From Sphingomonadales bacterium (lineage in GTDB: Bacteria; Pseudomonadota; Alphaproteobacteria; Sphingomonadales; Sphingomonadaceae), in NCBI GenBank assembly GCA_025362295.1, contig JANYGX010000010.1, forward strand, positions 26,388-90,387: a stretch of 64,000 nucleotides of DNA, in the 5' to 3' direction. The translations under genes were made by a program, and so were the position numbers. Below the pieces are notes generated by a model, which saw nothing but the letters and a program-made list of their open reading frames with translations, did no database searches and was not told where the DNA came from. The first letter of the stretch is position 1, and every line of letters begins with the position of its first letter. This document shows positions 6,136 to 25,355 of the stretch, piece by piece.

Positions 6136-7605
6136 TTATTTTGGCTGGGCAGCCCCAATGCCATTTTGGATATGCCCGATATATTGACCGTTGGTGCCAT
6201 CGGTGAAAGATATTGACACCAGAAATGTTTCGACATTGCTGAGTGCATTTGGGCCGCTATTGAAACCAAATCTATAAGTATTGTAATAGAATTGATTCAC
6301 TGTGCGCCTATCATTAGATGCTATGTCGAAAATCTGACCAGTAGCCAATACAGTTTGCAAACTCTGTCCAGCTGAGGACAAAAGCAATTTTCCATCGTTT
6401 GTTAAACCGCTAGTATCACGCTCTATTACGAGAATATCATCATTCCTGTTTATGGCTATAGAGCCCGGTGCCAAATCGGGATTGATCATAAGCTCACTCC
6501 CCAAAACTTCAGTTATTACATGTTTTTTAGCATAAAATAAACCTGCATAGATTTTTTGAGTTGGGTCGTTGTCTAAAGTGTATGACGCGGTGAAGGTAAA
6601 ATTTGCTGAACTTGATACGCGCACTCTGCCAAACCCTAGACCAACAAAAGTTGCTTTTCCAAGGCTGGTATTAATTGACTGTCCAGTTCGGGCAATCGGT
6701 TTCAAGGCTGTCGGCAACCCTCTATACAATACAGTGTTGTTAAGGTCTGTAACACCTGGTCCACTGAGCGTTGCTGTTGAAAAAAAACTGTTACCATGAT
6801 CAATCCAGTATCCGGAATATGTCGCTGTTAAACCCGGATAGCCCGGTGCTGGCACATTAACCGATGGCACCAGTGTCGCATTGCCGAAAGCACCAGCATA
6901 AACCTGATCAACACCGTTGTTGTCAATCAATGTATAATAAATGCTACCTGTTTGATTGAGACTAATGGTTTTATTAGCACCAGAGCCAAGATATTGCGTA
7001 CCAAGCGTTGGTGTAAATGTATAAATTTCTGTGCTGTACAAGCTATAGTCAGCGGAAGAATTGGTGACGTTAACCACAACTTGATCTTTGACGTTAAGCA
7101 TCATGTCAGATAAATAAATATAACTTTGAGTGGCGCTGCCCGGAAATGTCACATGCGTCTGGCCTAATGGCACAATTGTCTGCAAACCACCGCCACCGAG
7201 AAAATAAGCACCGGCTTTGTCTCCGGTTGCATTATTCGTAGAAAACGCAACATGCCCCGCCGTGTTCACAACCACAGCATTGATCGTCTCATCCGGTGCC
7301 AGTGCGAGTGAGGAACCATATTTGCCTTTATCGCCAACCAATATCTTGTCGATGCCATTGTTTGACACAACGATATATTGTTTCGGCTGGCCATCGGCTG
7401 TCGTGTAATTTCCCGCCTGAACCAGCTGACCTGACGGCATCAGATTGCTTACGACTTGCAAGGACACTGTGGCGTTCGCTGGAACGGCAGCAACTGGCAA
7501 GCGCACCGGCGTCCACGTTATTGTTGCCGCGTGCACGGCACCTGTTGTCAGGGCGGACAGTATCGCCAACAACGAGAAAACAATTTTGCCTGGATGGATG
7601 GTCAT
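6136..7605 (-). CDS. Exported repeat protein with an NxxGxxAF-type (choice-of-anchor-like) repeat
   Basis: 489 aa. Signal peptide MTIHPGKIVFSLLAILSALTTGAVHA. Contains N-T-A-G-H-V-A-F, which matches the NxxGxxAF repeat, plus several degenerate copies. The gene is clearly AT-richer than its flanks. No PEP-CTERM tail. Confidence 0.5.
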   Translation of the reverse strand: MTIHPGKIVFSLLAILSALTTGAVHAATITWTPVRLPVAAVPANATVSLQVVSNLMPSGQLVQAGNYTTADGQPKQYIVVSNNGIDKILVGDKGKYGSSLALAPDETINAVVVNTAGHVAFSTNNATGDKAGAYFLGGGGLQTIVPLGQTHVTFPGSATQSYIYLSDMMLNVKDQVVVNVTNSSADYSLYSTEIYTFTPTLGTQYLGSGANKTISLNQTGSIYYTLIDNNGVDQVYAGAFGNATLVPSVNVPAPGYPGLTATYSGYWIDHGNSFFSTATLSGPGVTDLNNTVLYRGLPTALKPIARTGQSINTSLGKATFVGLGFGRVRVSSSANFTFTASYTLDNDPTQKIYAGLFYAKKHVITEVLGSELMINPDLAPGSIAINRNDDILVIERDTSGLTNDGKLLLSSAGQSLQTVLATGQIFDIASNDRRTVNQFYYNTYRFGFNSGPNALSNVETFLVSISFTDGTNGQYIGHIQNGIGAAQPK

Positions 7606-7781: not shown

Positions 7782-8912
7782 TTATTTTGGCGGGAAGGCG
7801 ATTTCAACGCGGCGGTTTTGCGGTTCGCGCACACCGTCGGCGGTTTCAACCAGTGGCTTGCTTTCGCCGAAGTGTGATTCTGCAATCACATTCGCTGGCA
7901 CACCAAGGGCCACCATACGCTTCATGGCAGCGTCGGCACGGCGTGCAGACAGGCCATCGTTGTACTTATCGGTGCCTGATTTATCAGCGTGTCCGGCAAG
8001 TTGCAGTGACATCTGGCCTGTATCTTTATAGGCCTTGGCTGCCGCTTGCAGAATTGCATCCGCTTCCTTGGTGATCACAGACTTGTTGAAATCAAAGAAG
8101 ATGATGAACGGACCCGGTGCTGCAGGTGGCGGCGGTGGGGGTGGCGGTGGTGGGGCTGCCTCAACCACTGCAGGCGGCGGTGCTGGCGGTGGCGGTGGTG
8201 GCGGGGCGACAACTTTCGGTGCACCACCAAAATTGTAGGTGAAACCAAGTTGCAAGTTGTGTGTGCGCACTCGGGTGCGCAAGTCTGCACCGCCGGTGGT
8301 CACATAATTAACTTTACCGACATTGAAGAATTTATAGCCAAGGTTCAGATCAACATTGTCTGAAATCGAGCGCTTTAAACCAGCAAGCACTTGCCAAGCA
8401 AAGCCTGAATAGCTGTCGCTCAAGAAAGCCGCGCCGCCGTTTGCAGCAAAATCGGTGTTCTTAACTTGTGCCACACCAACACCCGGGCCGACATAACCGG
8501 TCCACTTGTTGTCACCGCTCGACACGTCAAACAAACCGTTGACCATGAAGCTTAGCACACTGACTTTACCCGTCACATCCGATGCAAAGCCGTTGGCACC
8601 GGTAACCGCAGTACCCGTTGTATCAAGGCCGTTGATGCTTCTCAGCGATGCGCGCTGGTAGCCCAGCTCAAATTCCGGACGAAACAAACCGAAATCATAG
8701 CCCAGAGCGCCGTTGATGTTGTAGCCAGTTTTGGTGGCGGTGCGTACAGATGGATCAGCGTTAACAACACCTGCTGCGACCACTTTGTGATCTTGTTGCT
8801 GAAATATAGATGGGCCGCCAGTGAGGCTGCCGTACCAATAGCCGTCCTTGGCAAACGCCGGCGCTGCAAGCGCGGTCGAAACCAGGAGTGTGGCCATGCA
8901 GAAATTACGCAT
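7782..8912 (-). CDS. Outer-membrane protein: N-terminal beta-barrel, poly-Pro linker, C-terminal OmpA/peptidoglycan-binding domain
   Basis: Start trimmed to MRNFCMATLLVSTALAAPAFA (signal peptide). Two proline tracts (PPPPPPPAPPP, PPPPPPPPPPP). C-terminal OmpA motif LAGHADKSGTDKYNDGLSARRADA...NRRVEI. Confidence 0.85.
   Translation of the reverse strand: MRNFCMATLLVSTALAAPAFAKDGYWYGSLTGGPSIFQQQDHKVVAAGVVNADPSVRTATKTGYNINGALGYDFGLFRPEFELGYQRASLRSINGLDTTGTAVTGANGFASDVTGKVSVLSFMVNGLFDVSSGDNKWTGYVGPGVGVAQVKNTDFAANGGAAFLSDSYSGFAWQVLAGLKRSISDNVDLNLGYKFFNVGKVNYVTTGGADLRTRVRTHNLQLGFTYNFGGAPKVVAPPPPPPPAPPPAVVEAAPPPPPPPPPPAAPGPFIIFFDFNKSVITKEADAILQAAAKAYKDTGQMSLQLAGHADKSGTDKYNDGLSARRADAAMKRMVALGVPANVIAESHFGESKPLVETADGVREPQNRRVEIAFPPK
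8115..8210 (-). repeat. Low-complexity GGT/GGC-rich DNA encoding the poly-proline linker of the OmpA-like protein
   Basis: Runs of ggtggcggtggtgg on the plus strand. Homopolymeric codon repeats are prone to length variation. Confidence 0.8.
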
Positions 8913-9069
8913 GGGGATACCTTTCGTTAGGTTGCAGAGCCCACCAACCATTGGTAGAGGCCTGATGCTGCACTAGCGCAGAGTCTTTTAAGATGCAAGC
9001 CTATGGTGCATTATCCTGTTGTAATAATGCATCACTTTTGCATTAACCATGTCGTTCAGCGTGCATTCA

Positions 9070-9567
9070 TCAAGTGGCAATAAGGCCGTGCCCACGGAGC
9101 GCGGTTAATATTTGGCCAAGGGTGGCGCGCGCCTGACTATCGATGGTTGTGCCACCAGAGGGCGCCGGAATGGCGCCAGACTGCGCCTGCACAACTGTTT
9201 TACCAGCAACACTGAGGCTCGACACCGGCCAATCGCCGTTGTGCCAAAATGTGCCGTCATACCAGACAAACATCAGCTCTAGCCTTGCCCAGGCCAGAAA
9301 GCCCGGCGGCACGCTGAGGTAACGCCAACCGCCGTCGGTCCACAACGCCAGCATACCAGTTTGTGTCGCCCAAGCACCGGTTGCCGCTGCTGGCACCAGC
9401 CAGAGTTGGCCAGATACCGGCGAGGCGGGCGGCGTCGCGAGATAGCGGCTTTCCAGCACGGGATGCGTCAGGCCATCAACACGGAGCAGCGCCTCGTTGT
9501 GAGTAATTTCTTTCTGGGCCTGGCCAGCGGACAGCAGCGGCAGCTGAAGACGGGGGGAGTCAGTCAT
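9070..9567 (-). CDS. DUF2793-type phage/GTA tail-fibre-like protein
   Basis: Start trimmed to MTDSPRLQLPLLSAGQAQKEITHNEAL (recalled DUF2793 signature QAQKEVTHNEAL). C-terminus ...ILTALRGHGLIAT is typical of the family. Sits directly after the g15-like gene. Confidence 0.7.
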   Translation of the reverse strand: MTDSPRLQLPLLSAGQAQKEITHNEALLRVDGLTHPVLESRYLATPPASPVSGQLWLVPAAATGAWATQTGMLALWTDGGWRYLSVPPGFLAWARLELMFVWYDGTFWHNGDWPVSSLSVAGKTVVQAQSGAIPAPSGGTTIDSQARATLGQILTALRGHGLIAT

Positions 9568-9648
9568 GGGGAAAGTCCTTAAGTTGAGAGTGAGACAAAT
9601 TTTTCGTGGTTCCAACTCAAGGCTGGAATGATGCGTTTGCGCCAGCGG

Positions 9649-11889
9649 CTAAAGCGTCACATTCACCGCGCCACCCGGACCGACCGCAGCACTCAGTTGT
9701 TGCACGGTGATCATCACCCCACTGACACTGGCCCCAAAATCCATGCTCTGATCCGCCCGCGCATAGGTCCAGCCCGGCGCAGTAACATCGACAACGCGCC
9801 GGACCACACCGCCAAGCGATACCGTGATCCGGTAGCGCTCACTTTCTTCCGCCAGCGGCACGTCGGTGCCGTCAAGCCAGGCAAAGCCATCGCGGCTGCG
9901 GCGGATCCAGCTGAGAGCGATATCACCGCTGGCACCCGTTGCGGCGTTCAGCCGGACAGGCGAGAGCGGCCGCAAGGCTTTACCCTGCACAAGGGTTGTT
10001 TGCGGTGTTACATCGCCAAGCGCGTTGCCAGGGCTGAGCGCTTTCCAAGTTTGGGTCGTGCCAACCGCCGACAGTGGCAGATTGAGGGCAATATCCGGCA
10101 GCGGACTGAGCAGGACAAACGGTTCACCCACCGCATGGCTGGATAGTGCATTGTCTGTGCCGCGCAAACCGCGCAGCAAGCCGGACAGGCGAAACTGGCC
10201 CGCCGCCAAAACAGTGACCGTGCGAAAGGCCAGCAGCTCTGATCCCAGCACAGCGAGATTGGCACCGGCAAGCACAGCCGCTGCTGAGCTGTTCAGCAGT
10301 GTATCGGTGCCGGCAACCAGTGCCACATCAACGGTGTTGTTCTCGTCCCAAAATCCGCTGGCACCAGCCGATAGCCGTGTCAACGCCGAGCCAAGTGGTG
10401 TTGGCCGCGAGACTGTTGCCGCTTGCGCGTAGCTGGTGCCGCCATCCTGCGACCACCAGACACCCGCCCGCCGCCAGCCAGGCAGCGGGCCGCTTGCCGC
10501 CACATAAAGCCGCGCGGCTTTTGGCACACTGGCCTCAATTGGCGGGAGATCGAGCACGGCCAGCACGGTTGGTCCATTGGGCGCACCAACTTGTGCCACA
10601 CCAGCCCCACCATCCGCGACCGCATTGCTGATGCCGTCCGCCGTTTGCAGCGGCTTCAGGCCAAGTGTCACCCCGCCTTCCTCAATCGCTACAGACGTGA
10701 CTTGCCACAATGCCCCCGGTTGCTCTGCCCAACCCAGAGTGTCCCCGGGCCGCACATCGGACCATGCTGGCCCCAGCCGCATCTCCAGCCGGTCACGCTC
10801 GCGCCAGCTGCGCGCCAGGCTCACCTCGGCCAGATTTTTGGCATCAACAGCTGCAAGCACGGCTGGCACGTCAAAGGTTTTTTTAGAGAGATAGCCGCCG
10901 TCCCGCCGCCGCGCCCGTTGCAGGCCGGTCTGATAATCGCGTGCCGGATCGAGAAAGCGCAACTGCAGCTCGCGCGGCAAAGCCTCGGCCGCTTGCCGGT
11001 CTTTGCGCAAGGCTGGCTTGCTACGATTGCCATCAGGCGGAAAGGCACCAAGATTGGCGACACCTGGCAGCACCCGCGCAGCGCCTTGTGTCACGGCCCG
11101 CACATTGAGCGTGCCGTCGTGCCCGTCGCTCACCATCGGTTTGATGCCACCAACCGCTTCAAGCACCGAGCGTGCCGTTGTATCCTGCGCCACGATAAAA
11201 CCGCTGACACCGCCCTCTGGCCCGCTCACGGCGCGCTTCCGCACATTGCACCTGGCGATCACATCATCAACCAGCGTTGTGAACGCCACTTGCGGGCCAC
11301 TGTCTGCAATCACCTCAAACGTCAGATTGGGAATCCGGTTGGCAAAGTCAGCCAGCGGCAGTTCCTCAAGCACAACATAAGCCATGCCCCGGTGCGCGGG
11401 GGCCTGCGCCATGCCAAGTGCGGCCTGCAGCAGCGCATCCGGCATTTGGTTTTCGCTGCCTGTGTAAAGCCGCAACGAACCACCCGGCATCAGCGTGCTG
11501 CCATCACCTGAAATCAGTTTGCCATCGGCCCAGATGCGCGCAATGCCGGCAATGGCACGGCCACTCAGGCCAACGGCAAAAGAGGCCGCGTAGGTATAGC
11601 TGTTTGTGCTGCCCGCACTTTGCTTGCCGCCTTGCGCCTGATCGGCCCGTCGCTCGATCAACCCCGTTGACCAGATGACATTGCCCGCCACCCGCACACG
11701 ACCATACACACGCGGCACAACTTCACCGTATGTTGCAGCCTGCACAGACAGATCTTTAAGGCGCGGACCATCATTGGATGACCCACCAAGAATGGCATGA
11801 TCAATAGAGGACCCAACAAACGCGCCAATCGCCTGACCAAGTGGACCAGCGACATAGTTGCCGACAGCCGAAAGAATGAGAGTTGCCAT
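9649..11889 (-). CDS. GTA g15-like host-specificity / baseplate 'megatron' homologue (short form)
   Basis: 746 aa. The N-terminus MATLILSAVGNYVAGPLGQAIG...YGRVRVAGNVIWSTGL...IARIWADGKL...LRLYTGSENQMPD...HRGMAYVVLEELPLADFANRIPNLTFEV matches the recalled g15 / lambda-J-like N-terminal module. It continues straight into a Phage-tail_3-like region. Confidence 0.7.
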   Translation of the reverse strand: MATLILSAVGNYVAGPLGQAIGAFVGSSIDHAILGGSSNDGPRLKDLSVQAATYGEVVPRVYGRVRVAGNVIWSTGLIERRADQAQGGKQSAGSTNSYTYAASFAVGLSGRAIAGIARIWADGKLISGDGSTLMPGGSLRLYTGSENQMPDALLQAALGMAQAPAHRGMAYVVLEELPLADFANRIPNLTFEVIADSGPQVAFTTLVDDVIARCNVRKRAVSGPEGGVSGFIVAQDTTARSVLEAVGGIKPMVSDGHDGTLNVRAVTQGAARVLPGVANLGAFPPDGNRSKPALRKDRQAAEALPRELQLRFLDPARDYQTGLQRARRRDGGYLSKKTFDVPAVLAAVDAKNLAEVSLARSWRERDRLEMRLGPAWSDVRPGDTLGWAEQPGALWQVTSVAIEEGGVTLGLKPLQTADGISNAVADGGAGVAQVGAPNGPTVLAVLDLPPIEASVPKAARLYVAASGPLPGWRRAGVWWSQDGGTSYAQAATVSRPTPLGSALTRLSAGASGFWDENNTVDVALVAGTDTLLNSSAAAVLAGANLAVLGSELLAFRTVTVLAAGQFRLSGLLRGLRGTDNALSSHAVGEPFVLLSPLPDIALNLPLSAVGTTQTWKALSPGNALGDVTPQTTLVQGKALRPLSPVRLNAATGASGDIALSWIRRSRDGFAWLDGTDVPLAEESERYRITVSLGGVVRRVVDVTAPGWTYARADQSMDFGASVSGVMITVQQLSAAVGPGGAVNVTL

Positions 11890-12029: not shown

Positions 12030-12446
12030 CTAAACTATGGAAAACCGGTAGGCTCCCACCAGCCTTAAACTCCACGTTTCATCCAGATCATGCTCGACCA
12101 CGCGGCGAAACCGGATATCGGCATGAATGACACCAGCCCCAGTGGCAATGCCGAGATGGAGCGGCGTGCCACCAGCCGTGAACCGCAGCACATCCCCCGC
12201 CATAATCTCTGTAAAGCCAAGGGGTATCAGCTGCGCTGCCAGCAGCGCATCATCCAGGCGCGCAGGATTTTCTGTCAGACGGTAGTCTGCGTCTGTATTG
12301 TCGGCAAACCCGACGGCGCGCGCGGCAAACAGCACCAACCCGATACAATCAAGTCCGGTTGCTGGATCACGGCCCTGCAAGCGGAACGGCGCACCAACAC
12401 ACGACCGGGCGGCTTCAACAATTTTTTCACCTGGTATTTTAGCCAT
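12030..12446 (-). CDS. GTA g14-like NlpC/P60 (C40) cell-wall peptidase
   Basis: 138 aa. GRDPATGLDCIGLVLFAARAVG (catalytic Cys context) and ...GAGVIHADI (His). Overlaps the g13-like stop. Confidence 0.8.
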   Translation of the reverse strand: MAKIPGEKIVEAARSCVGAPFRLQGRDPATGLDCIGLVLFAARAVGFADNTDADYRLTENPARLDDALLAAQLIPLGFTEIMAGDVLRFTAGGTPLHLGIATGAGVIHADIRFRRVVEHDLDETWSLRLVGAYRFSIV

Positions 12447-13290
12447 TGGGATATCTCACCAGAGAATCGAGGCCAGGCACAAAAGGCTCGCCGCGAAAAT
12501 TCAACCGATTGTAAAATTTGTTGATGCAGCTGTCCTGTCGCTTGTCACAGCCAGCCGTGATGTCCAGCCGATCACCCACTTGCAGGCCAAGGCGGGGTGG
12601 TGCACGCAAACCAATTTGTATCGACGCCCCTGCCGACCCTGATGTCAGAATTTCGCCTTCATCGCTATCGTTGTTGCCAGACAGCCAGCGCACCCGCCCA
12701 TAAGCCAGATAACCGGCAAGCTGAAAATAACCGCTCACTGGCGCTGTGACCAAAAAGTTTTGCATGTCAATAACACGGGTGATGACCGCCTTGAATTTAT
12801 AAGGTTGCAGGTTAACACGGCACCGCGCATCGCCAAGCTCGGCTCGGCATTCCGGCGAATAGAGTTCCACAACCGGTGCGTCCAAGGCATCGGTAAGGCC
12901 GCGCACTTCAACAGAGAATTTTTTGTCTTCCTCACGCACGGTGCCAAAATGACCGGAAGAGAGCGCCACGCTGCCAGCATCCGGCTGCGACCAATCCACT
13001 AGAAACAAGCGAATTTCCGCACCATCAAAACGCCCAGCGCTAAGATCGCTGGCTTCAATCGCTGCATGGCTGAGCACACCGGCAAGTTCAATGGTATCGA
13101 CGGAAAACCCTGCCGACATGACCAGCGCACTGGGTGAGAACGAGGGTGTGGCCAGATAGCGCTGGCCATCGATGATAATATCGCGGTCGTGGTTGGTAAA
13201 ACCCAACACCACGCCGTCGCGCCGGCCAATACGCCAGCACAAAGCCGTGCTGGTGAGCGGGCCTGCGAGAAGATCAGTGATGGTTGTCAT
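12439..13290 (-). CDS. GTA g13-like hub protein (DUF2163 + BR0599 C-terminal domain)
   Basis: 283 aa. N-terminus LTSTALCWRIGRRDGVVLGFTNHDRDI. C-terminus CDKRQDSCINKFYNRLNFRGEPFVPG matches the recalled Phage_BR0599 motif. Confidence 0.8.
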   Translation of the reverse strand: MTTITDLLAGPLTSTALCWRIGRRDGVVLGFTNHDRDIIIDGQRYLATPSFSPSALVMSAGFSVDTIELAGVLSHAAIEASDLSAGRFDGAEIRLFLVDWSQPDAGSVALSSGHFGTVREEDKKFSVEVRGLTDALDAPVVELYSPECRAELGDARCRVNLQPYKFKAVITRVIDMQNFLVTAPVSGYFQLAGYLAYGRVRWLSGNNDSDEGEILTSGSAGASIQIGLRAPPRLGLQVGDRLDITAGCDKRQDSCINKFYNRLNFRGEPFVPGLDSLVRYPNG

Positions 13291-13378
13291 GATGGTGGCT
13301 CTCTATAATTAATATTTTAAATTTTTTCCTCCCCCCTTGCGGGAGAGAGGCAGAAAAAAACAGAGCGACGCTGGCCAA

Positions 13379-15709
13379 TCATTCCCTGATTTCCACAATC
13401 GGCACAGAAGCACTATCACCTGCCCGAAACGTGCTTGCCGAAACACTCAGCTGATCATCTTGAAACCGCACGGGCACATCGAACTGAAACCCGGCTGTGA
13501 TATTTTTACCGGCTGGAGGCGCCAGCGTAAAACTGATCAACCCGCCTGCGCCGAGCGCCCAGCCTGCATTCATCAGGGCACCGTCAACAGCGACCAGAAC
13601 GCTGGAAGCCACTGGCCGCGTGATGAACCGCACTGCTGCACCGTAATGCTTTGCCAATGGAAACGTTGTTGTGGTACCGTCGCCAAGGCCGATCGTCTGA
13701 TCCAGTGCTGTCACGGGCGCACCAAGGGCTGATGAAGTGTTATCAAGCGGATCGGTATAGCGAAAGCCGCGTGCACGCCCTTGGCGAGCCTCGAAAAAAG
13801 CCAGCAGCACAGCAAGATCAGCGTCTGATCGAATGCCGGGGGCGGCATCATAAACATGCCGCGCTTGCGCCCAGTTGATGTTGCGACTCTCATAGCCTGA
13901 GGTTGTCTCGACCACAGTGGTTGAAAATTGCGGGCCACCGGATGCCTTGCGGCCCAGCGCCAGTGGAAAAAGTATATCATCAAAGCCGTTCATATCTGTC
14001 TCCGTTTTATAAAGGGTAAAGCCATCGCGGTTGATTTGTGGCAGTGCCCAGATATAGCGGTTGCGCGCAAAGCTGGCGTTGGTTGCCACACGATCAATGA
14101 GGCCCCACTGCGCACGGCTGGCAGCATTCAAAACAAACCCGGCAAAATAATCTGTGCGGCTGTTTGGATAGCCCAGCCGTGTCTGCATCAAGGCAACACT
14201 TTGGGCATGGGCCGCAGCGTTGCCACTGGTGACAAACTCATAATCTTCCAGTTGTACCGCGTCGAATGCTGGCCAGGCCCAGCCGGTTGGAATGTTAGCG
14301 GGCAGCAACACAGCCGCTGCATCGGCGATAATTTGCGGGGTATAAATCAGCAGCGTCACCTCAGTGCCTGGCGCCTGCGTTTTAAAAGTGTTTTTAAGCG
14401 CAACCGTGGCCGCCGCCAACTGCGCACCGCACCACGTGACAAACGCCAGCTGGTCGGCGCTCAGGTTTTGCGTGACACTGGTGATGAACGCTGGCACCGG
14501 CTTGCCCGTGGCCGCAGGATACGCCGCCAGCACACTGGCATCGTAAAAACATGGTTTGCGATTTGCGCCAAGGCCAGACCACCACCACGGTTCACCAATC
14601 TGGGCTGTAAAGGTGATCGGAAAACTTTGCGCCAGACTGATAAATTGCAAAAATACTGTCTTGATGTAAGCCATGGCCGCTGTGTTCACTGGCGACAGCA
14701 GTGTTGACGGCGGGGTGTAGCCCGTGAGCGCCGGTGTGTTATCAAAAGCGCTTTGCTTCCACGCCAGCGGTGCCACCGCATCAAACAGTTCGAACGAAAC
14801 GGCAATGCCGACACCAAGACCATGCAGGGCCAGGCTTGCAAAAAAAGCTTGATGCCAGCTCACGCACGCGCCGTTCAGCACCTGCGGTGTGCTTGCCACG
14901 ATATAACGGCTTTCGCTGGCCGACCATTGCAGCGCATAATAATGGCTTTCGCCGACATAGTGATCGACCGCACCACGGTAGCCAAGCGCATGCAGGCCCT
15001 CAACCACACGCTGCGGGTTTTGATTGTACACATCATCGTAACCCGTTGCTGTGCGGTAGCCGTGCGGCGGTATGCGGCCATCGCCCATCGCCAGTCCCGA
15101 CATCGCCCCGACACAGCGCATGTTTGTCAGGGACACCGTCGCAAACGCTGGACCGCCAGCTATTGGCACGTCCATCGTTGCATCATAATCCACCGGCACC
15201 AGCGAGATGAACATGCGGTCGATATCACCGGTATACACTGGATCAGCGTTGCTGATGAGGTTGAAGCCGCCAACCATGGCATCAAAATCTAGCGCTATCG
15301 CTGCACTGGTGTTCGTGCCTGTCGCATAGTTCCAGAGCCGCACATACCAGACATGGGGCACACCGTTTGCATCGCGGCCCTCGATGGTGAGTGTTGGCCC
15401 GTTGATCGCGTCGAGCGGCTTCAGGTTACCGGTCTGGTCCCACTGGAACGACCATTTGAGGCCGCGATAATCCGTGTTTGTGGCATAGGCCAGAAGCGGA
15501 TGATCGATACTGTCAGCCGACCACCAGATCAGCCCAGCGAGATCTTTCTTGCTGACAAACACACACGCCACCTGCAAGGCATCAGCGGCCAGATTGTAAA
15601 CTGCTGCCGACATCGGGCGGGCAAAATCCACCGTCCAGTAGCGCGGATCGAAACGCTCGATTGTGGTCGTGCGCTGCTGGTCGTCAGCCGTTGCAAGCCA
15701 GTAGCTCAT
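13379..15709 (-). CDS. Fusion ORF: N-terminal region of about 560 aa (unassigned, possibly TIM-barrel/glycosidase-like) + C-terminal GTA g12 distal-tail (DUF2460/TIGR02217) domain
   Basis: 776-aa uninterrupted ORF. The last ~215 aa (MNGFDDILFPLALGRKASGGPQFSTTVVETTSGYESRNINW...FFEARQGRARGFRYTDPLD...) are a typical full-length g12. The preceding ~560 aa have no counterpart in canonical g12. Start overlaps the TMP stop. Confidence 0.7.
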   Translation of the reverse strand: MSYWLATADDQQRTTTIERFDPRYWTVDFARPMSAAVYNLAADALQVACVFVSKKDLAGLIWWSADSIDHPLLAYATNTDYRGLKWSFQWDQTGNLKPLDAINGPTLTIEGRDANGVPHVWYVRLWNYATGTNTSAAIALDFDAMVGGFNLISNADPVYTGDIDRMFISLVPVDYDATMDVPIAGGPAFATVSLTNMRCVGAMSGLAMGDGRIPPHGYRTATGYDDVYNQNPQRVVEGLHALGYRGAVDHYVGESHYYALQWSASESRYIVASTPQVLNGACVSWHQAFFASLALHGLGVGIAVSFELFDAVAPLAWKQSAFDNTPALTGYTPPSTLLSPVNTAAMAYIKTVFLQFISLAQSFPITFTAQIGEPWWWSGLGANRKPCFYDASVLAAYPAATGKPVPAFITSVTQNLSADQLAFVTWCGAQLAAATVALKNTFKTQAPGTEVTLLIYTPQIIADAAAVLLPANIPTGWAWPAFDAVQLEDYEFVTSGNAAAHAQSVALMQTRLGYPNSRTDYFAGFVLNAASRAQWGLIDRVATNASFARNRYIWALPQINRDGFTLYKTETDMNGFDDILFPLALGRKASGGPQFSTTVVETTSGYESRNINWAQARHVYDAAPGIRSDADLAVLLAFFEARQGRARGFRYTDPLDNTSSALGAPVTALDQTIGLGDGTTTTFPLAKHYGAAVRFITRPVASSVLVAVDGALMNAGWALGAGGLISFTLAPPAGKNITAGFQFDVPVRFQDDQLSVSASTFRAGDSASVPIVEIRE

Positions 15710-16272
15710 GCGCGTGACCCCGCTTGTTCAAGCGAGCGCCGCACGGCGGCGGCAATCTGCCCAGCACTGCGCGCCATGATGCGCGGCTCAGCCGCACCGC
15801 CCGTCACATTGACCGTGATCGCCACAGTCTGTTTGGCGGCTGCGCCGTTCGGCTGAACGCTGCCAGCGCCTTGCGGGATGAACAGCTCAGGGCCGCGCTC
15901 GCCGACAATATAGGGCTGACCGCTGGTGACTGCACCACCGCCAGTGCGGCCGGGCAAGCCGACAGCGCCAAGCAGCGATGACACCAGACTGCTCCCGACA
16001 CCACCACTGCCAAACAGGCTACCAAGGCCAGACTTCAGCGCGCTTGAGGCAATATCGGCAAGCACGCCAAGGGCTACTTTTTTGAAACTGTCAAAACTCA
16101 GCGAACCGGTTTTGACAAACTGTTCAAAGGCGCTGGTCAGGCGCTTACCAGTCGATTGACCAGCCACATCGAGCAGGTTTAAATCCTCTTTGGCTTTTTT
16201 GAGGTTTTGCGACAGTGCCGTGGTGTCGGCCTTCACCGCCACCACCAGGGTATCAAGGGTTGTTTCAGCCAT
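15706..16272 (-). CDS. GTA g11-like short tail tape measure protein
   Basis: Start trimmed to MAETTLDTLVVAVKADTTALSQNLKKAKEDL. C-terminal block GGGAVTSGQPYIVGERGPELFIPQGAGSVQP is the recalled TMP/g11 motif. Confidence 0.75.
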   Translation of the reverse strand: MAETTLDTLVVAVKADTTALSQNLKKAKEDLNLLDVAGQSTGKRLTSAFEQFVKTGSLSFDSFKKVALGVLADIASSALKSGLGSLFGSGGVGSSLVSSLLGAVGLPGRTGGGAVTSGQPYIVGERGPELFIPQGAGSVQPNGAAAKQTVAITVNVTGGAAEPRIMARSAGQIAAAVRRSLEQAGSRA

Positions 16273-16483
16273 GGGGAGCATCCGGAAAAAGTGTGATGAG
16301 TTTATGAAGATCGGTGCGCGTGACGCCATGCTCAGGCACAATGCCCAAACTCTCGCACCAGCCATGCCAAGCGAGTTGCACCTCGCGTGGTGTCAGTTGC
16401 CAGAAATCAGCTGGTGACCAGCCGCGCACGCCACACGCCCATTTCAAATGATTGTGTGCGTGTTTGCCAAAGCTGTCAGACAC
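16265..16483 (-). CDS. GTA g10.1-like tail assembly chaperone (rcc01693 family)
   Basis: 72 aa with WSPADFWQLTPREVQLAW. GTG start overlaps the g10 stop (GTGTCTGA). Confidence 0.7.
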   Translation of the reverse strand: MSDSFGKHAHNHLKWACGVRGWSPADFWQLTPREVQLAWHGWCESLGIVPEHGVTRTDLHKLITLFPDAPHG

Positions 16484-16781
16484 CGCCGAGCGCCTGTTGC
16501 ATCACTGCACGGAACACGGGCGTGAGCTGTGCAAGGCCAGCCTTCATGCAGGCCTCGCAAAACACATCCTGAAACAGCGTGGCTGATTTGGGTTCAACAC
16601 AGCACCAGAGCACAGTGACAAGCGATTGCAACGACAGCCGTCCATCACTGGCGGCATCAATAACCGCAAACAATGGCCCGACGGATTGCTCGGCGGCAAC
16701 CAGATTCGCATAGCTTGGTATGAGTGTATAGGTGGTGGTACCAAGCACCAGCGCCACCTCACCGCGGCTCATGTTGATCAT
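16476..16781 (-). CDS. GTA g10-like tail assembly chaperone
   Basis: 101 aa. RGEVALVLGTTTYTLIPSYANLVAAEQ...LQSLVTVLWCC is typical of the 'gene transfer agent family protein' found after the tail tube gene. Confidence 0.7.
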   Translation of the reverse strand: MINMSRGEVALVLGTTTYTLIPSYANLVAAEQSVGPLFAVIDAASDGRLSLQSLVTVLWCCVEPKSATLFQDVFCEACMKAGLAQLTPVFRAVMQQALGGV

Positions 16782-17187
16782 GACCCAAAGCTCACAGCAC
16801 CGGTCGATTGCAAAGTCATCGTGTAGGTGCGCTCGCCGTTGTAATCACCGGCAAAATCGAGCTTGGTGATGAAGAATTTACCGCGCAACGTGTCGCTGCT
16901 TTCAAACATCACGCTATAATCATCGACAACACTGCTGAGCGCATTGTTGCGCGCACGCAGTTCGGCCGCAGAATTCATAAATTACCCGAGCCTGTTAACG
17001 TCACACTCTTAAGCCCTGCGCCTGAGAGAATTTCACTCCAGCCGCCAGAGTTTTTGGTCGTGATATCAACCGGATTGGCATTGATGGCAAGCGTTGTGGC
17101 ACGCAAGCCCGCAATGGTCGTGTAGTTGGGTGGCAAGGCCCCATCGCCGATTTTCAAGAGAAAAGCCGAGCCTTTTTCAGCTGACAT
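16778..17187 (-). pseudogene. Major tail (tube) protein, TP901-1/g9 family, split by a 1-nt frameshift
   Basis: ORF 16975-17187 (MSAEKGSAFLLKIGDG...TIAGLRATTLAINANPVDITTKNSGGWSEIL...LTGSGNL*) and ORF 16778-16978 (MNSAAELRARNN...FFITKLDFAGDYNGERTYTMTLQSTGAVSFGS) together make one ~136-aa g9. The frames differ by 1 nt at GGTAATTTATGAATTC. Confidence 0.75.
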
Positions 17188-17285: not shown

Positions 17286-17684
17286 TCAGGTCGCAAAGAT
17301 CCGCACACGAAATTCAATAATGCCGTGGTGTGTCAGCCCGTCAGGATCAACCAGATTGATCGCCTGCAAAAACCGCAGCGAAATCAGTTTGAAACCGGCA
17401 ACCGCAAACGGCGTCGCAAGTGCAGCCTGCACCAGGGCCATCAGTTGCTTGGCCTCTTGCCGACCGGCCTTGCGTGACCAGATGTGCACGCTGATGCGGT
17501 GCTCGCTTGCCGCCACATCCTTGGTCGAATAATCCACCACCACATCATCGCCAATCGACACATAGGGCAAGGCTTGATCCTGCGGCGGCATATCGAACAC
17601 ACCGGTGATTACAGCGCCAAGCGGTGCAGACGCCACCAGCGCCCCATAAACCGCTTGCTGCAAGGCAAGGGATGCAGCGGTCAT
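17286..17684 (-). CDS. GTA g8-like tail terminator (DUF3168)
   Basis: 132 aa. LQQAVYGALVASAPLGAVITGVFDMPPQDQALPYVSIGDD...ISVHIWSR is a typical DUF3168 pattern. Confidence 0.7.
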   Translation of the reverse strand: MTAASLALQQAVYGALVASAPLGAVITGVFDMPPQDQALPYVSIGDDVVVDYSTKDVAASEHRISVHIWSRKAGRQEAKQLMALVQAALATPFAVAGFKLISLRFLQAINLVDPDGLTHHGIIEFRVRIFAT

Positions 17685-18284: not shown

Positions 18285-18830
18285 CTATGCCAGACGCAGG
18301 CGTTTGTAGGGCCGCCACAGCGCTGAGGCAGCAAGCGCAAGCCCCGCCGTTTGCGGCTCGTCGCGGTGGCTGTAAAGATGCACCGCCTGACGAATAATGC
18401 CAAGCCGCAACGCTTCAGCAAGGCCGTTCCAATCGCTGGCCATACCAGCGATGTAGTCAAGGGTGATGCGCGACAACGGCAAGGGTGCCACAGCCAGTTT
18501 CACTGTGGCTTCATCGTTCATATCCGTGCTGACTTGCACAGTTGGCAGTGCAACCGCAGTAGTCACCCCAAGTGGATCGAGCAGGGTGAGAGCCACAAGA
18601 CTGATAAAGGGTGCCTTACCAAGCGCTATGGTCTGCAGGGCAACCCTGTTTTCACGCCACACGCTGGAGAGCAGAACCAGACCCGTAAAATCTTCTGCCT
18701 GGGCAAGGGCTGCACGCAGCAAACCGCTTAACAGGGCATCATCATCGGCCGTGTCGATGCGCAGATAGGCTTTCAGTTCTGACAGCAGCGTGGCTGGCAA
18801 AACCGCTGGCTGTATAAGCGTCATGGTCAT
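18285..18830 (-). CDS. GTA g6-like head-tail connector (gp6 family)
   Basis: Start trimmed to MTMTLIQPAVLPATLLSELKAYLRIDTADDDALLSGLLRAALAQAEDFTG. ATGA overlap with the preceding gene's stop. Confidence 0.75.
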   Translation of the reverse strand: MTMTLIQPAVLPATLLSELKAYLRIDTADDDALLSGLLRAALAQAEDFTGLVLLSSVWRENRVALQTIALGKAPFISLVALTLLDPLGVTTAVALPTVQVSTDMNDEATVKLAVAPLPLSRITLDYIAGMASDWNGLAEALRLGIIRQAVHLYSHRDEPQTAGLALAASALWRPYKRLRLA

Positions 18831-19111
18831 CAGCGTAACTCCACACGCACAGAGAGCGAGCGCGTTTCCGCGCGGCCATCGCTGAACACCACATGATTGG
18901 CAATGTGATACAAATGCCCAGCAACACCGCCGATCATGGTGGCGGTGGTTTTTGTTGTTGTGAAACTTTGTGTTTGCACGGCAAGGCCACCGGGTTCGGT
19001 TGGCATAACACTCCATGCGCTGGTGGTGAGTGTCTGCACATCGAGATACCCCGCTGCCCAGTCAATGGCATAATCCAGCACCGCATCCGGCGCTTTCAGA
19101 TAGGTGGACAT
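18830..19111 (-). CDS. Small phage virion-associated protein (IDW-motif family; function unknown)
   Basis: 93 aa. MSTYLKAPDAVLDYAIDWAAGYL...ANHVVFSDGRAETRSLSVRVELR, translationally coupled to g6. I only vaguely recognise the family as phage fibre/adaptor-like. Confidence 0.5.
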   Translation of the reverse strand: MSTYLKAPDAVLDYAIDWAAGYLDVQTLTTSAWSVMPTEPGGLAVQTQSFTTTKTTATMIGGVAGHLYHIANHVVFSDGRAETRSLSVRVELR

Positions 19112-20274: not shown

Positions 20275-21475
20275 TTATGACACATCGAATTTCATCAACT
20301 TGATCGCCTCGCTGTTGAGCACTGCGCCGCCGACGCGTTTGGTTGCATAAAACTGCACATAGGGTTTGTTGGTGAACGGATCGCGCAGGATGCGTGTGCC
20401 AACACGGTCCGCAATAATATACCCGTGATAGAAATTACCAAAAGCGATTGACAGGCTGCCGGTACCGACATCCGGCATGTCTTCCGCTTCAACCACATCG
20501 TAACCCAGTAAGGTTGGCGAGCGGCCTTCGGAAAAACTTGGTTGCCAGATGAAATGCCCGGTCGCATCCTTAAATTTACGGATGATCGAGACCGTTTTTG
20601 AATTCATCACCCAGACAGCGCCTTGTCGGTAGGTGGCGCGCAGGCTGTGCAGCAGATCGATCAGCTGTTCGGCTGGTGCTGTCGCCGAAAACCCGCCGGC
20701 AACGCCGGTGGCATTATATTGCAAGGTGCCAAAAGCCCGTGTTGCATCGGGGGTGGCGGCAATCGGGTAGGTCAGAAAACCTTTTGGTTTGGCTGTGCCG
20801 TTGCCATTGATAAACGCCGTGCCTTCCTTCTGGGCAAAGTCGCGGGCAATTTCTTCAGTGAGCCATTGTTCGACATTGAAGAACGCATCATCCAGCATGA
20901 ACTGTGTGGCGGACGGGTTGGCATAAAGATCACCCGCTGGCGGAAATTTGCGTGAACGTGGTCGCCGCTGTTGTTGGCCGTGCATCCTGCTCAGCGGCCC
21001 AGCCGGATGTGAGGCCAGACGATGCGACCAGCTTGCTATAGCCAGATGTGCCAACTTGCACATTTTGCGCGACGGCCCTCAGCGGCGATACAGCCCGCAA
21101 GCGCAATTCGATATTGGCATCGATTTGCGGGGTGACAGTGTAGCCACCTTCTGCCGGCACGCTGATATCGAGCGCTTTGGTTTGTAGCGCCTGCAAACCG
21201 GTTTCATTGCCGCGACGCAGGTATGAACCAAACGCGGCCTTCAGTTCAGGGTCTTCCTCGACAACAGCGGCTGCCGATTGCAAGGGGCGCTGGGCAGCCC
21301 GGCTGATTTTTTCCATGCGCGATTTCACCTGAATTATTTCTGCATCAATGCGGTTCAGTTTTTCATTCAGCAGCACATCGTGCCGAGCCGTATCGATGTC
21401 GTTTACAGTGTCTGCAAACGCCGTGTGCACCGCCTTCATGTCATGCGAGGCGGCTTTTGTTTCATAGGTGGTCAT
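20275..21475 (-). pseudogene. HK97-family major capsid protein (g5), interrupted by a 1-nt frameshift
   Basis: ORF 20930-21475 ends ...ARPTTAATTFTQISASG*. ORF 20275-21063 carries ...PPAGDLYANPSATQFMLDDAFFNVEQWL... to the C-terminus ...AIKLMKFDVS. Skipping one T in CAAATTTCCGCC gives the contiguous ...TFTQIPPAGDLYA... and a capsid of about 398 aa. Confidence 0.8.
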
Positions 21476-21933
21476 TGTGGTTGGTCTCCAGTTGTTGGGG
21501 TTTGTGTTGGCGGGTTTTGCACCATCAGCCGTGCCAGAGGCTGCATGGGAAACGTCACCACCGAGATTTCGACAAGCTCAAGCTCGGTGAGGATACGGAT
21601 TTTACGAAGTCTGTTGAGGCTGAACTGGCGCACTCGGTAGCCGATGGAGAGGCCGTTCAGGGCGCCGTCGCACACAAGGGCATTGGCATCAGAACCAATT
21701 TGTGCACCCGTGGTGAAATGGCCGCTAATTTTTAGGCCGCGCGTGTCTTCAGCAATGCTTTCAATCACCCCGATCGGGTTTTTGATATCATGCTGCCAGA
21801 GCAGTGGCAGAGCCTGCTTTCTGGCAAGCGCTTTTTGAAAAGCGCCAGGCATAATCACATCGCCGCCGCTGTCCGGCATAGAAAATACTGCAGCATAACC
21901 GTCGAAACGGTTTGCCGTTATTGGCATGGTCAT
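21472..21933 (-). CDS. HK97-family prohead protease (g4)
   Basis: 153 aa. FDGYAAVFSMPDSGGDVIMPGAFQKAL...LPLLWQHD...PIGVIESIAEDTRGLKISG. Overlaps the capsid start. Confidence 0.85.
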   Translation of the reverse strand: MTMPITANRFDGYAAVFSMPDSGGDVIMPGAFQKALARKQALPLLWQHDIKNPIGVIESIAEDTRGLKISGHFTTGAQIGSDANALVCDGALNGLSIGYRVRQFSLNRLRKIRILTELELVEISVVTFPMQPLARLMVQNPPTQTPTTGDQPQ

Positions 21934-21955: not shown

Positions 21956-22270
21956 TCAGTGCAACAACACGTTTGGCAGGGCGCGCCACTTGATCAGCAG
22001 CAGGCAAAACACACCAATGACAGCAAGGCGAAACACCCAGCCGATCAGACTGTGGGTGATCGAGCGTTTGGCATCGCGCCAAGCGTCCAGCAAATCCCGC
22101 ACGTCGCGCAGATCCTGTGCGGCAACGGCATCCTCCAGCCCCAGGCGGGCAAGCGCCCGCGACGCCCCCAGTTCGGCTGCCTCTTCCACCAGCGCATGAA
22201 TTGTCACCACAGCAGCGCCCTCACGCGTTGCCTGATCGGCAAGCGCTGCAAGCAGGCCATGGCTGGTCAT
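21956..22270 (-). CDS. Small C-terminally membrane-anchored protein, g3.5 (rcc01685)-like in position and architecture
   Basis: 104 aa. Helical/acidic N-terminal part, then the TM helix LIGWVFRLAVIGVFCLLLI. Located between portal and protease, as g3.5 is in RcGTA. Confidence 0.5.
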   Translation of the reverse strand: MTSHGLLAALADQATREGAAVVTIHALVEEAAELGASRALARLGLEDAVAAQDLRDVRDLLDAWRDAKRSITHSLIGWVFRLAVIGVFCLLLIKWRALPNVLLH

Positions 22271-22641: not shown

Positions 22642-23850
22642 TTATCCGTCACTGATGTCTTCACGCAACATGGTTAACCCAAGCAGCTGGCGTTTTTCGG
22701 TGTCGCTGAGAAACGCCGCCGCACTCACCTGCGCCCAGACTTGCGCACGGTCAGTCGCCAGCGCTGGAATAGAATCGAGATCAATGCCGAGTTCAAGCTC
22801 TGGCCAATAGAGTTGCAACCAGCCGGAGAGGCTTGCAAGAATGCGTGTCGATAGCGGCAACAGCGTGGCGCGCCACAGCGCCTTGCTCGCCTCCTGATAG
22901 TTGCTATAGGTGGCGTCCCCCGGAATATTAAGCAGTATCGGCGGCACACCAAACGCCAGCGCAATGTCGCGCGCAGCGGCATGGCGCGAATTGATAAAAT
23001 CCATATCCGCTGGTGTCATCGACAGCGGCTGCCATTTCAGGCCGTCTTCCAGCAACAGTGGCCGCCCGGCATTGTCGGCCCCCTGAAAATGATCGGCCAT
23101 TTCACCCTTAAGCCGCGTGTACTGATCCGCCGTGAGGTTGGTTGCGCCGTCGCCGGGTTCAAACACCAGAGCCCCTGAGGGGCGTGCGGCATTCTGCAAC
23201 AATCCAAGCGTCCACTGCGCTGCAGCGTTGTGCGTTTCTATGGCAAGGGCCGCTGAATCAACCCCGCCTAGCCCGTAATGATCGTCCAGCGGATTGAACG
23301 TTTTCAGGTGCAGCAAGTCGGACCGGCCCGTGAGCGGATCGACAGCAAAATTCACCACTGTGCCCGCCACTTGATATTTGTAGGTGGCCGGCCAGCCGGT
23401 GGAACTCGCGACCACTGTCACCCGCTCTGGTCGCAGCAGATAGAGCTCCGCTGGGGCCCCGTCATGCCCCTCGACAAGTTCAATATAGGCATTGCCGTGC
23501 AACATCAGATAGCTCGCTAACGCTTCCATAAATGCCGGACCGCTTTGCGCAGCGTTGGGCTGGGCCAGCAGTTTGAGCACGGGATGCTGCGGGCTTGCCC
23601 GGCCCTGTTCCGACGCAGTGAGTTCAAGCGAGGCCAGACCGTCACTCAGCATCTGCACCGCGCGTCGCGCCACCGGATTGCGCTGGTAGCCATCGCGTGT
23701 GAGTGCCTCGTAGCCCAGCGCCCCAAAGCGCGGCAGGCCGGTTGTGAGGTAAGCCGCAAATGTCGAGCGGGATATGCTGCCACTGGGCGGCAAATTGGTG
23801 CGACTGGCTTTGGTTGCAAAACGGTGGCGCAAACGCGAGAGCAGGGTCAT
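22642..23850 (-). CDS. HK97-family phage portal protein (g3)
   Basis: 402 aa. ...YLMLHGNAYIELV...FNPLDDHYGL...LLNIPGDATYSNYQEASKALW... is typical of portal proteins. Confidence 0.9.
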   Translation of the reverse strand: MTLLSRLRHRFATKASRTNLPPSGSISRSTFAAYLTTGLPRFGALGYEALTRDGYQRNPVARRAVQMLSDGLASLELTASEQGRASPQHPVLKLLAQPNAAQSGPAFMEALASYLMLHGNAYIELVEGHDGAPAELYLLRPERVTVVASSTGWPATYKYQVAGTVVNFAVDPLTGRSDLLHLKTFNPLDDHYGLGGVDSAALAIETHNAAAQWTLGLLQNAARPSGALVFEPGDGATNLTADQYTRLKGEMADHFQGADNAGRPLLLEDGLKWQPLSMTPADMDFINSRHAAARDIALAFGVPPILLNIPGDATYSNYQEASKALWRATLLPLSTRILASLSGWLQLYWPELELGIDLDSIPALATDRAQVWAQVSAAAFLSDTEKRQLLGLTMLREDISDG

Positions 23851-25273: not shown

Positions 25274-25355
25274 AGTGGATACTCCTGCATGGCGGTGGGC
25301 GGCGGTATGTTCAGACATGTGGCGAACAAACGAGAGCGGAAGAAAAGCTTTGTGT

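Follow-up and report, generated by a model that had tools for sequence, protein, structure and literature searches.

Why should the distal tail protein of a gene transfer agent (GTA) carry more than 500 additional residues in front of its conserved domain? This question is raised by the gene g12 in a stretch of 64,000 nucleotides from a Sphingomonadales bacterium (assembly GCA_025362295.1, contig JANYGX010000010.1; the whole stretch is called the window in the following). The gene is a single open reading frame (ORF) of 776 amino acids on the minus strand (13379-15709), with an ATG start and zero internal stops in the ORF listing, and its neighbours are the short tape-measure gene g11 and the hub gene g13, in a head-tail cluster of the type known from RcGTA, the Rhodobacter model. 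It encodes the distal tail protein in an RcGTA-type GTA of a Sphingomonadales-type lineage. The answer we favour, with reasonable rather than high confidence, is that this lineage typically makes a decorated distal tail protein, which would display a polysaccharide-recognition module with a TIM barrel at the GTA tail tip, and that the same gene probably also gives the plain protein from an internal start.

The fused distal tail protein and its N-terminal module

A sequence-only reading of this DNA had placed a complete g12-like domain, opening with a methionine of its own, behind a long N-terminal region with the motifs IGEPWWW and AVQLEDYEF, and all of these features are found where it had located them. 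The g12-like domain fills the last ~200 codons of the 776-codon ORF, the methionine is M573 at MNGFDDILFPLALGRK (motif MNGFDDILFP), and the two motifs contain E373 and E488, respectively. Residues 577-775 match DUF2460 (PF09343) over its full length (profile positions 1-205 of 205; E 6e-72, 241.8 bits against a cut-off of 30.4). In a sequence search of the PDB, this part matches Rcc01695 of RcGTA (E 3e-44) as well as the distal tail protein of roseophage R4C (E 1e-39), and in a Foldseek search its fold matches the R4C protein (8gtc_G, E 6e-18, TM(target) 0.75) and PhiJL001 gp83 (TM 0.76). By homology, the C-terminal domain belongs to the Rcc01695 family of distal tail proteins. RcGTA g12/Rcc01695 (PDB 6TBA, 6TEB, 6TEH) and the R4C protein (8GTC) share with it the same full-length DUF2460 in the C-terminal 200 amino acids, and RcGTA g12 also holds the same gene place between g11 and g13. 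However, the RcGTA protein has only 210 amino acids, whereas that of the window has a 572-amino-acid N-terminal extension, and the canonical start has become internal. The ATG of the long form overlaps the stop codon of g11 (ATGA).

The N-terminal region had been called unassigned, which turned out to be wrong: two curated Pfam families cover it, each in full length, and solved N4 structures exist. NCTSP_N (PF23844) scores 261.8 bits against a cut-off of 27 (profile positions 1-191 of 191) and TIM-barrel_NCTSP (PF23845) 384.4 bits against the same cut-off of 27 (positions 1-348 of 348). The TIM barrel suspected in this region is borne out by the Pfam family as well as by an AlphaFold2 model computed from 39 homologues (pLDDT 88.9, pTM 0.86), which has the alternating strand-helix pattern of a predicted (beta/alpha)8 barrel. 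A Foldseek search with such a model, proposed as a check, returned from the PDB N4 gp64 (9yf5/9lc0; E 1e-23, TM(target) 0.66, root mean square deviation (rmsd) 2.8 A) and gp65 (E 7e-17), followed by TIM-barrel glycoside hydrolases (GHs). The non-phage neighbours include GH66 dextranase, GH50 agarase, GH31, GH36, GH14, GH10 and the C-terminal domain of PgaB, and many of the neighbours are glycoside hydrolases composed of a beta-sandwich plus a TIM barrel. Against a viral library, the whole module superposes on a Goslar tail protein (rmsd 2.6 A over 577 columns), with further structural matches to Loki-type, uligo and N4-like proteins. Judged by sequence, the N-terminal part of g12 is a member of the NCTSP module family.

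In N4, the gp64/gp65 heterodimer builds a six-fold sheath around the tail tube, with gp65 acting as the receptor-binding protein (PMC13434306). Both sheath proteins, the major subunit gp65 and the minor subunit gp64 (PDB 9LC0, 9YF4, 9YF5), represent the same two Pfam families as the window module and have the motifs GEPWWW, Q-I/L-E-D-Y and G-x-SHY in common with it. Residues 107-408 of gp64 (417 amino acids) match g12 272-564 (E 1.6e-42 in the PDB sequence search), while in gp65 (1382 amino acids) residues 50-129 match g12 11-90 and residues 363-416 match g12 208-259. The module, contiguous in g12, is therefore split over two polypeptides in N4, and the gp64-gp65 heterodimer may reconstitute one module. 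In N4 these parts are followed by ~970 more residues of gp65 and sit around a podovirus tail tube; g12, unlike N4, has them in one contiguous chain fused to a distal tail protein of siphovirus type. Escherichia phage PMBT57 (an N4 species; locus L090, 502-5936) likewise has the module over two adjacent genes, its gp65 carrying the beta-sandwich start (50-129) and the first barrel segment with GMSHY (363-416), its gp64 the remaining barrel (107-408).

Searching 50,697 phage genomes by tblastn, we found the module in 326 records, among them phi92 gp142, rV5-like 'tail fibre' proteins, Goslar, Lokivirus siphophages and N4-like podophages. An exhaustive HMMER census gave 534 module-bearing cluster representatives at 50% identity, in proteins of 205-2953 amino acids, where the module can be N-terminal, internal or C-terminal and in two cases stands behind a Phage-tail_3 domain. 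Two of the census proteins (P0372 and P0373), candidates for modules inside a megatron, show no similarity to g15, and a third (P0361) shows none to the hub. As far as these homologies tell, the NCTSP module is a widely shuffled building block of tail proteins. The phi92 gp142 and rV5-like (Vequintavirinae) fibre proteins, which are annotated as 'glycan deacetylase', align over 97-98% of the query at 28-30% identity (E ~1e-61) and keep the same invariant residues as the window module, yet they are free-standing fibres of E. coli myophages, without a distal tail protein domain. In the Lokivirus protein LOKI_17 and its Halfdan homologue (phrog_6040), the same module belongs to a siphophage tail-tip gene adjoining the distal tail protein gene; here, however, the distal tail protein is encoded by a separate upstream gene and the module forms the N-terminus of the next, hub-like protein. 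The whole query aligns in Foldseek to an IMEAB3 homologue of the LOKI_17 type.

The fusion to DUF2460 was followed in the 120 best matches from a collection of 5.8 billion proteins (48-100% identity, ~100% coverage). PF23844, PF23845 and PF09343 occur together in every one of them, in proteins of 755-794 amino acids with the exception of one 728-residue entry (94% coverage), and some bear the NCBI name 'phage distal tail protein, Rcc01695 family'. Whether the module always comes with DUF2460, as had been asked, can thus be affirmed for these 120 homologues but not for phages, in which N4, phi92 and Loki carry it without DUF2460. A scan of one genome per species revealed relatives of the long g12 in at least 580 species-level genomes, mostly of Sphingomonadales (Sphingomonas, Sphingosinicella, Polymorphobacter, Sphingorhabdus, Parasphingopyxis and others) and also in Pedomonas, Emcibacter and Rhodothalassiaceae. 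Synteny and ORFs were compared at 80 loci from many genera. Wherever the contig reaches, these keep the order g10, g11 (~190 amino acids), g12 (~775), g13, g14, g15 (~725-790) and DUF2793, and 78 of the 80 have the uninterrupted long g12 ORF. The two exceptions, both from metagenome-assembled genomes (L019, 81-2432; L066, 9998-12361), have one in-frame stop each within g12, in one case just past the internal start and inside DUF2460 (FH*VR), in the other inside the TIM barrel (YF*GF), and these probably are sequencing errors or pseudogenes. No lineage with a g12 split at the junction of module and DUF2460 was found among the 80 loci.

It could be argued that the fusion is an artefact, in which a missed stop, a frameshift or an assembly error joined a module gene and g12, given that two neighbouring GTA genes of this genome are frameshifted and that an internal Shine-Dalgarno (SD) sequence and ATG stand exactly where a separate g12 would begin. 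We give this next to no probability, since the identical in-frame fusion persists in all 120 homologues down to 48% identity and is intact at 78 of the 80 independent loci, with the stops of the two exceptions lying away from the junction. This excludes a missed stop or frameshift as the way in which the long ORF arose. The genuine fusion that had been proposed stands, and by homology the fused g12 is the standard form across a large Sphingomonadales-type lineage.

To speak of an undescribed baseplate architecture, as the sequence-only reading did, is nevertheless an overstatement: the arrangement is the norm in a large clade, an NCBI name for it exists, and evolved distal tail proteins (evolved Dits) are known in siphophages. 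In the latter, a carbohydrate-recognition module aids adsorption to exopolysaccharide-bearing hosts (PMC10688798, PMC7291167). The g12 protein, too, is a distal tail protein carrying a module of carbohydrate-recognition type, and its combination of module and Rcc01695-family domain is conceptually an 'evolved Dit' as known from Gram-positive siphophages. Evolved Dits contain small insertions of carbohydrate-binding modules inside the Dit galectin domain. Unlike these, g12 has 565 residues of beta-sandwich plus TIM barrel at the N-terminus of a distal tail protein of DUF2460 type, in a GTA, and with an internal start for the undecorated form. Since Pfam and NCBI already list the fusion, and since phages are known to have decorated distal tail proteins, we consider it an instructive variant rather than a new kind of system.

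An internal start conserved in g12

The internal methionine was mentioned in the sequence-only reading, its significance as a start was not. We compared this position in 79 related genes, that of the window and those of 78 loci, so that the following counts are not independent events. A start-capable codon stands two to three codons before the conserved Phe opening DUF2460 in all 79 genes, being ATG or GTG in 78 and TTG in one. At F-3, the position of the canonical g12 start, 30 genes have ATG and 46 GTG (76/79); the remaining three have ATG, GTG or TTG at F-2, one codon later. Valine at F-3 is encoded by GTG in 46 of 46 cases, as against 53% GTG among the valine codons of the same genes (0.53^46 ~2e-13). 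This exclusive use of start-capable codons argues for initiation and would otherwise be hard to explain. An SD core is located 4-18 nt upstream of the internal start in 97.5% of the genes versus 8.6% of in-frame control positions, the mean anti-SD duplex energy amounts to -9.0 kcal/mol versus -1.0 kcal/mol at the controls (Mann-Whitney p = 3e-47), and the spacing from SD to start is 4-8 nt in 70 of the 79 genes. From this start, a short product of 208 amino acids (median) is predicted, which begins at most one residue from the start of the stand-alone distal tail proteins of Rhodobacterales GTAs and PhiJL001. The ATG of the long form is conserved in 78 of 79 genes as well, with a weaker SD (-6.7 kcal/mol, motif in 61%). 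Very probably, g12 yields two nested products: the first ATG would give the 776-residue decorated form, and the internal SD with its ATG or GTG the canonical form of ~204 residues.

Several points weigh against this conclusion. Both products are predictions from gene sequences, the genes counted are kin, and the codons of the acidic linker (GAG/GAA/GAT) by themselves give SD-like purine runs, so that the SD enrichment may in part stem from the linker itself; the GTG-only valines are not explained in this way. Some of these points would also favour a gene that makes the long protein only, with the internal ATG/GTG and SD as a relic of the ancestral g12 start or as, for example, a translational pause for separate folding. 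SD-like sequences within genes can indeed pause ribosomes, and the acidic linker naturally encodes purine-rich, SD-like RNA. We hold such a single-product gene to be unlikely. A relic would not be retained as a start-capable codon by all 79 genes, whose proteins are 45-55% identical, nor would it keep all 46 valines as GTG; the residue alternates between Met and GTG-encoded Val only, bar the three genes in which the start is shifted by one codon. The SD spacing is canonical, and a start codon would be unnecessary for a pause.

If, as we favour, two products are made, the tail-tip ring could mix decorated and plain subunits. In RcGTA, the N-terminus of the distal tail protein (Ala2) contacts the hub and the megatron, there are differences between odd and even subunits, and the hexamer bridges six-fold to three-fold symmetry through alternating conformations of its subunits (PMC7296036). 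Because of these contacts and of the difference between alternate subunits, a mixed g12 ring is structurally plausible, and by analogy a composition of perhaps three plus three subunits is attractive. Co-assembly of the two forms and their stoichiometry are what we infer from RcGTA, not what the loci display directly.

Reciprocal architecture of g12 and the megatron

The megatron of RcGTA (g15, 1304 amino acids) has five domains, namely iris, adhesin-like, peripheral (230-744), central and fibre-binding (PMC7296036). The window g15 aligns to it only on the two sides of the peripheral domain (Table 1) and therefore lacks this ~560-residue GTA_TIM domain (PF13547). Its 120 best homologues are, without exception, equally short and devoid of PF13547. 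A Rhodobacterales locus shows the reverse state, with a g12 of 210 amino acids and a megatron containing GTA_TIM and a weak GH113 signal. Sequence comparison thus has a TIM-barrel module of ~560 residues placed on different baseplate proteins by the two lineages. Like the g12 module, GTA_TIM is a glycosidase-like TIM barrel of comparable size, peripheral in a baseplate of the same type; exactly the lineage without the g12 module has it, and it is absent where g12 carries one. It differs in belonging to another Pfam family with no detectable homology, and in being inserted within g15 (three copies per RcGTA particle) rather than placed at the N-terminus of g12.

Could the module be the GTA_TIM domain itself, recombined from g15 into g12? 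The sizes are close, ~560 residues being absent from g15 and ~565 gained by g12, each TIM barrel is preceded by ~200 residues, and the summed lengths of both proteins are nearly equal (776+746 versus 210+~1300). Still, such a homologous relocation is quite improbable. The g12 family profile, aligned by hhalign to the GTA_TIM megatron of the Rhodobacterales strain HTCC2150, gives a probability of 0.2%, and in a search of the PDB it does not match Rcc01698 even at E<=10. No PF13547 match is found in g12, the top 50 Foldseek PDB matches contain generic glycoside hydrolases and not the RcGTA megatron, and the weak GH113 signal of GTA_TIM is missing from the NCTSP barrel. It should also be noted that the hhalign and Foldseek results count against our own reading as far as it speaks of a substitution, a word that denotes an analogy of position and fold class only, because homology between the module and GTA_TIM is undetectable. 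With this restriction, we read the two arrangements, by analogy, as a functional substitution at the baseplate periphery and not as the relocation of one domain.

The megatrons of phages PhiJL001 (gp86), DSS3P8 (gp052) and RcKickapoo (gp52) have large unassigned inserts at the place of GTA_TIM in RcGTA; GTA_TIM was sought in all three and rejected, the inserts being different ones. A Laminin_G_3 domain (concanavalin-like lectin) is present in hub proteins, internally in PhiJL001 gp84 (L082, 3731-5500) and N-terminally in virus S20 (L083, 4980-6479). In this baseplate type, different glycan-type modules seem to be tolerated at every peripheral position. The latter virus, Tetraselmis viridis virus S20, is annotated with an algal host, yet has an RcGTA-like siphophage tail module (DUF2460, hub, short megatron) and Caudoviricetes in its taxonomy line, and its real host is therefore likely bacterial.

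Proposed glycan recognition and the state of the locus

In the model outlined here, the DUF2460 part of g12 would insert into the hexameric tail-tip ring and so display the modules around the baseplate. There they would bind, and possibly cleave or modify, the surface polysaccharide of the recipient cell, taking over the role of the 'peripheral' GTA_TIM domain of the RcGTA megatron, which is missing from the g15 of this lineage. The glycan binding or catalysis that we infer starts from the residues that stay invariant between g12 and its phage homologues at ~28-30% identity: D225, D226, R234, S255, E307, W317, P333-P334-S335, Q370, G372-E373-P374-W375, W377, D390, N472, E488, Y490, G524-F525, W554 and D562. 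E307, E373 and E488 each follow immediately after a predicted strand of the AlphaFold model, and the family motifs YDD, GxSHY, GEPWW and E-x-Y are all present in the window protein. This invariant cluster of Asp, Glu and aromatic residues therefore looks like a conserved sugar-binding or catalytic pocket.

The sequence-only reading had interpreted the two motifs as the beta4 and beta7 acids of clan GH-A glycosidases. Of this proposal, the conservation part holds, both Glu residues being invariant even in phage homologues of ~28% identity, whereas the clan GH-A beta4/beta7 assignment found no confirmation: the barrel matches no GH family even at E<=10, and around E373 it reads GEP instead of NEP, the acid/base motif of this clan. 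The two acids may lie on strands 4/7, 4/6 or 5/7. The proposed link to recognition of surface polysaccharides agrees with published work on this homologous module of phages. Dependence on the NGR exopolysaccharide is common to N4, Vequintavirinae and phi92-like phages, which encode homologous 'glycan deacetylase' tailspikes (PMC8669472). NGR specificity has been assigned to a short domain common to N4 gp65 and phi92 gp142, for which a conserved GMSHY k-mer is predictive (bioRxiv 10.64898/2026.04.02.716166), and the gp142-type domain has been linked to recognition of a ManNAc-derived surface glycan (PMC8669472; bioRxiv 10.64898/2026.04.02.716166). The phi92 structure paper makes no mention of gp142. 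Carbohydrate recognition by the module is, at the level of homology, a well-founded idea; its membership in clan GH-A and a catalytic activity are unproven.

Other observations speak against glycan recognition or catalysis by the module of the window. Its residues 253-257, corresponding to the GMSHY site, read GESHY, which departs from the perfect GMSHY associated with NGR use and from the NGR-binding phages (relatives have GMSHY in 21 of 39 cases, GMSHF in 13, or other variants). Besides the missing GH match, we found no enzymatic activity for any member of the module family in the literature, and the N4 papers describe gp64/gp65 as a sheath and receptor binder, not as an enzyme. Along these lines, the module might be purely architectural, a collar- or sheath-like scaffold at the tail tip without any glycan-binding or enzymatic role, as the sole solved homologues are described as sheath subunits, a GH family is undetectable by sequence and TIM-barrel folds often are non-catalytic (for example, the noncatalytic beta-amylase-like Foldseek hit 7upv). 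We regard a mere scaffold as rather unlikely, since one and the same cluster of Asp, Glu, Trp and Tyr residues is kept without change in GTAs and in myo-, sipho- and podophages, at ~28% identity, which suits a ligand pocket better than scaffold contacts that would differ between these particles. Furthermore, NGR-dependent phages that differ in morphology have the homologous domain in common as their determinant, and in the census the module is found in many different tail-fibre-like contexts.

The surrounding cluster is collinear with the g2-g15 set of RcGTA type, including a short (~200 amino acids) tape-measure gene and DUF6127 (g3.5); its features are collected in Table 1.

Table 1. Positions of g12, its parts and the other GTA genes in the window
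Feature	Position	Strand	Remarks
g12, long ORF	13379-15709	minus	776 aa; NCTSP_N + TIM-barrel_NCTSP + DUF2460 distal tail protein domain
NCTSP_N beta-sandwich	15083-15661	minus	residues 17-209; Pfam PF23844 E 3e-78; PDB 9lc0_I match
TIM-barrel_NCTSP	14018-15070	minus	residues 214-564; Pfam PF23845 E 6e-115; N4 gp64 E 1.6e-42; Foldseek E 1e-23
Acidic linker TLYKTETD	13994-14017	minus	residues 565-572; from module to distal tail protein domain
Shine-Dalgarno core GGAG	14000-14003	minus	6 nt upstream of internal ATG
Internal start ATG, M573	13991-13993	minus	ATG or GTG in 76/79 related genes at this position
Predicted nested short product	13379-13993	minus	204 aa (M573-E776); equivalent of canonical g12 distal tail protein
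DUF2793 protein	9070-9615		
g15, short megatron	9649-11889	minus	746 aa; aligns to RcGTA Rcc01698 residues 27-204 and 767-1301 only
g14, NlpC/P60 peptidase	12030-12446	minus	
g13, baseplate hub	12439-13290	minus	Phage_phiJL001_Gp84_N + BR0599
g11, tape-measure-like protein	15706-16365	minus	219 aa; directly upstream of g12
g10, chaperone	16476-16781		
g9, tail tube	16787-17187	minus	frameshifted
Tail completion	17286-17684		
Head-tail connector-like gene	18285-19016		weak Phage_connect_1 match
g5, capsid	20275-21475	minus	frameshifted
Prohead protease	21472-21933		
DUF6127	21956-22270		
Portal	22642-23850		
Terminase	23954-25558		

Two high-copy structural genes of the window, the major capsid gene g5 and the tail-tube gene g9, are not intact. 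In g5, the residues homologous to capsid positions 1-164 are encoded at 21475-20990 and those homologous to 185-400 at 20931-20278 in another frame, the switch lying near 20945-21075, where no homopolymer run of 6 or more is found. The two parts of g9 (residues 1-68 at 17187-16984, residues 68-134 at 16987-16787) are in different frames as well, again with no long homopolymer. Either these frameshifts are assembly errors or the GTA is decaying in this genome. As a consequence, the particle may not be made here, which weighs against our reading for the window itself, and to our knowledge GTA activity has not been demonstrated in Sphingomonadales. Conclusions on the family are unaffected by the frameshifts, whereas it becomes less certain that this g12 copy is used.

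A decaying cluster, in which g12 would be a non-functional remnant regardless of the family elsewhere, is on balance unlikely, but deserves serious consideration for this genome: both frameshifts lie outside long homopolymers, GESHY replaces the usual GMSHY of the family, and the 88-nt AT-rich gap between g12 and g13 is unusual. On the other hand, full-length intact ORFs remain for g12, g13, g14, g15, portal, terminase and protease, g12 has lost none of the family-invariant residues, and the two frameshifts could be assembly errors. In the gap itself (13291-13378) there are A/T runs and an element resembling a hairpin, CTCTCCC...GGGGGGAG; related loci have g12 and g13 abutting or just a few bases apart. 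The G+C content is 55-61% over the GTA cluster (8000-34000) compared to 46-49% at ~36-50 kb, which fits the GC elevation reported for GTA genes, or else a neighbouring region of distinct composition. Downstream of the cluster, the minus strand encodes an OmpA-family outer-membrane protein (beta-barrel plus OmpA domain; 7782-8951) and a DUF7453 protein (6136-7605).

In the literature, we found no description of the long g12 in Sphingomonadales-type GTAs, of the reciprocity between long g12 and short megatron, of the kinship of g12 with the N4, phi92 and NGR module, or of its internal start, and papers on GTA comparative genomics do not discuss the length of g12. The knowledge of GTA biology is based almost wholly on the Rhodobacter model with its solved baseplate, and the large Sphingomonadales-type branch, for which the strongest selection on GTA genes was reported (PMC9765227), has a tail tip of a different build. 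The module comes from a family which N4, phi92 and rV5 use against an exopolysaccharide receptor, and it is therefore a testable candidate for the choice of GTA recipients. It further provides a clean example of module exchange among three baseplate proteins, the distal tail protein, the hub and the megatron, and the conserved internal start predicts a two-isoform structural gene, which current annotation pipelines miss. Only tentatively do we extend this to a lineage-wide g12 of dual product, whose isoforms would co-assemble in a mixed ring (for example, three plus three on a three-fold baseplate) and whose module, drawn from the pool that also supplied the N4 sheath and the phi92 fibres, would replace GTA_TIM in recognising the recipient, as an active polysaccharide-binding or depolymerising unit. 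If true, this would constitute a second, previously undescribed adsorption architecture of GTAs, in which the ratio of the isoforms would serve as a built-in setting of valency.

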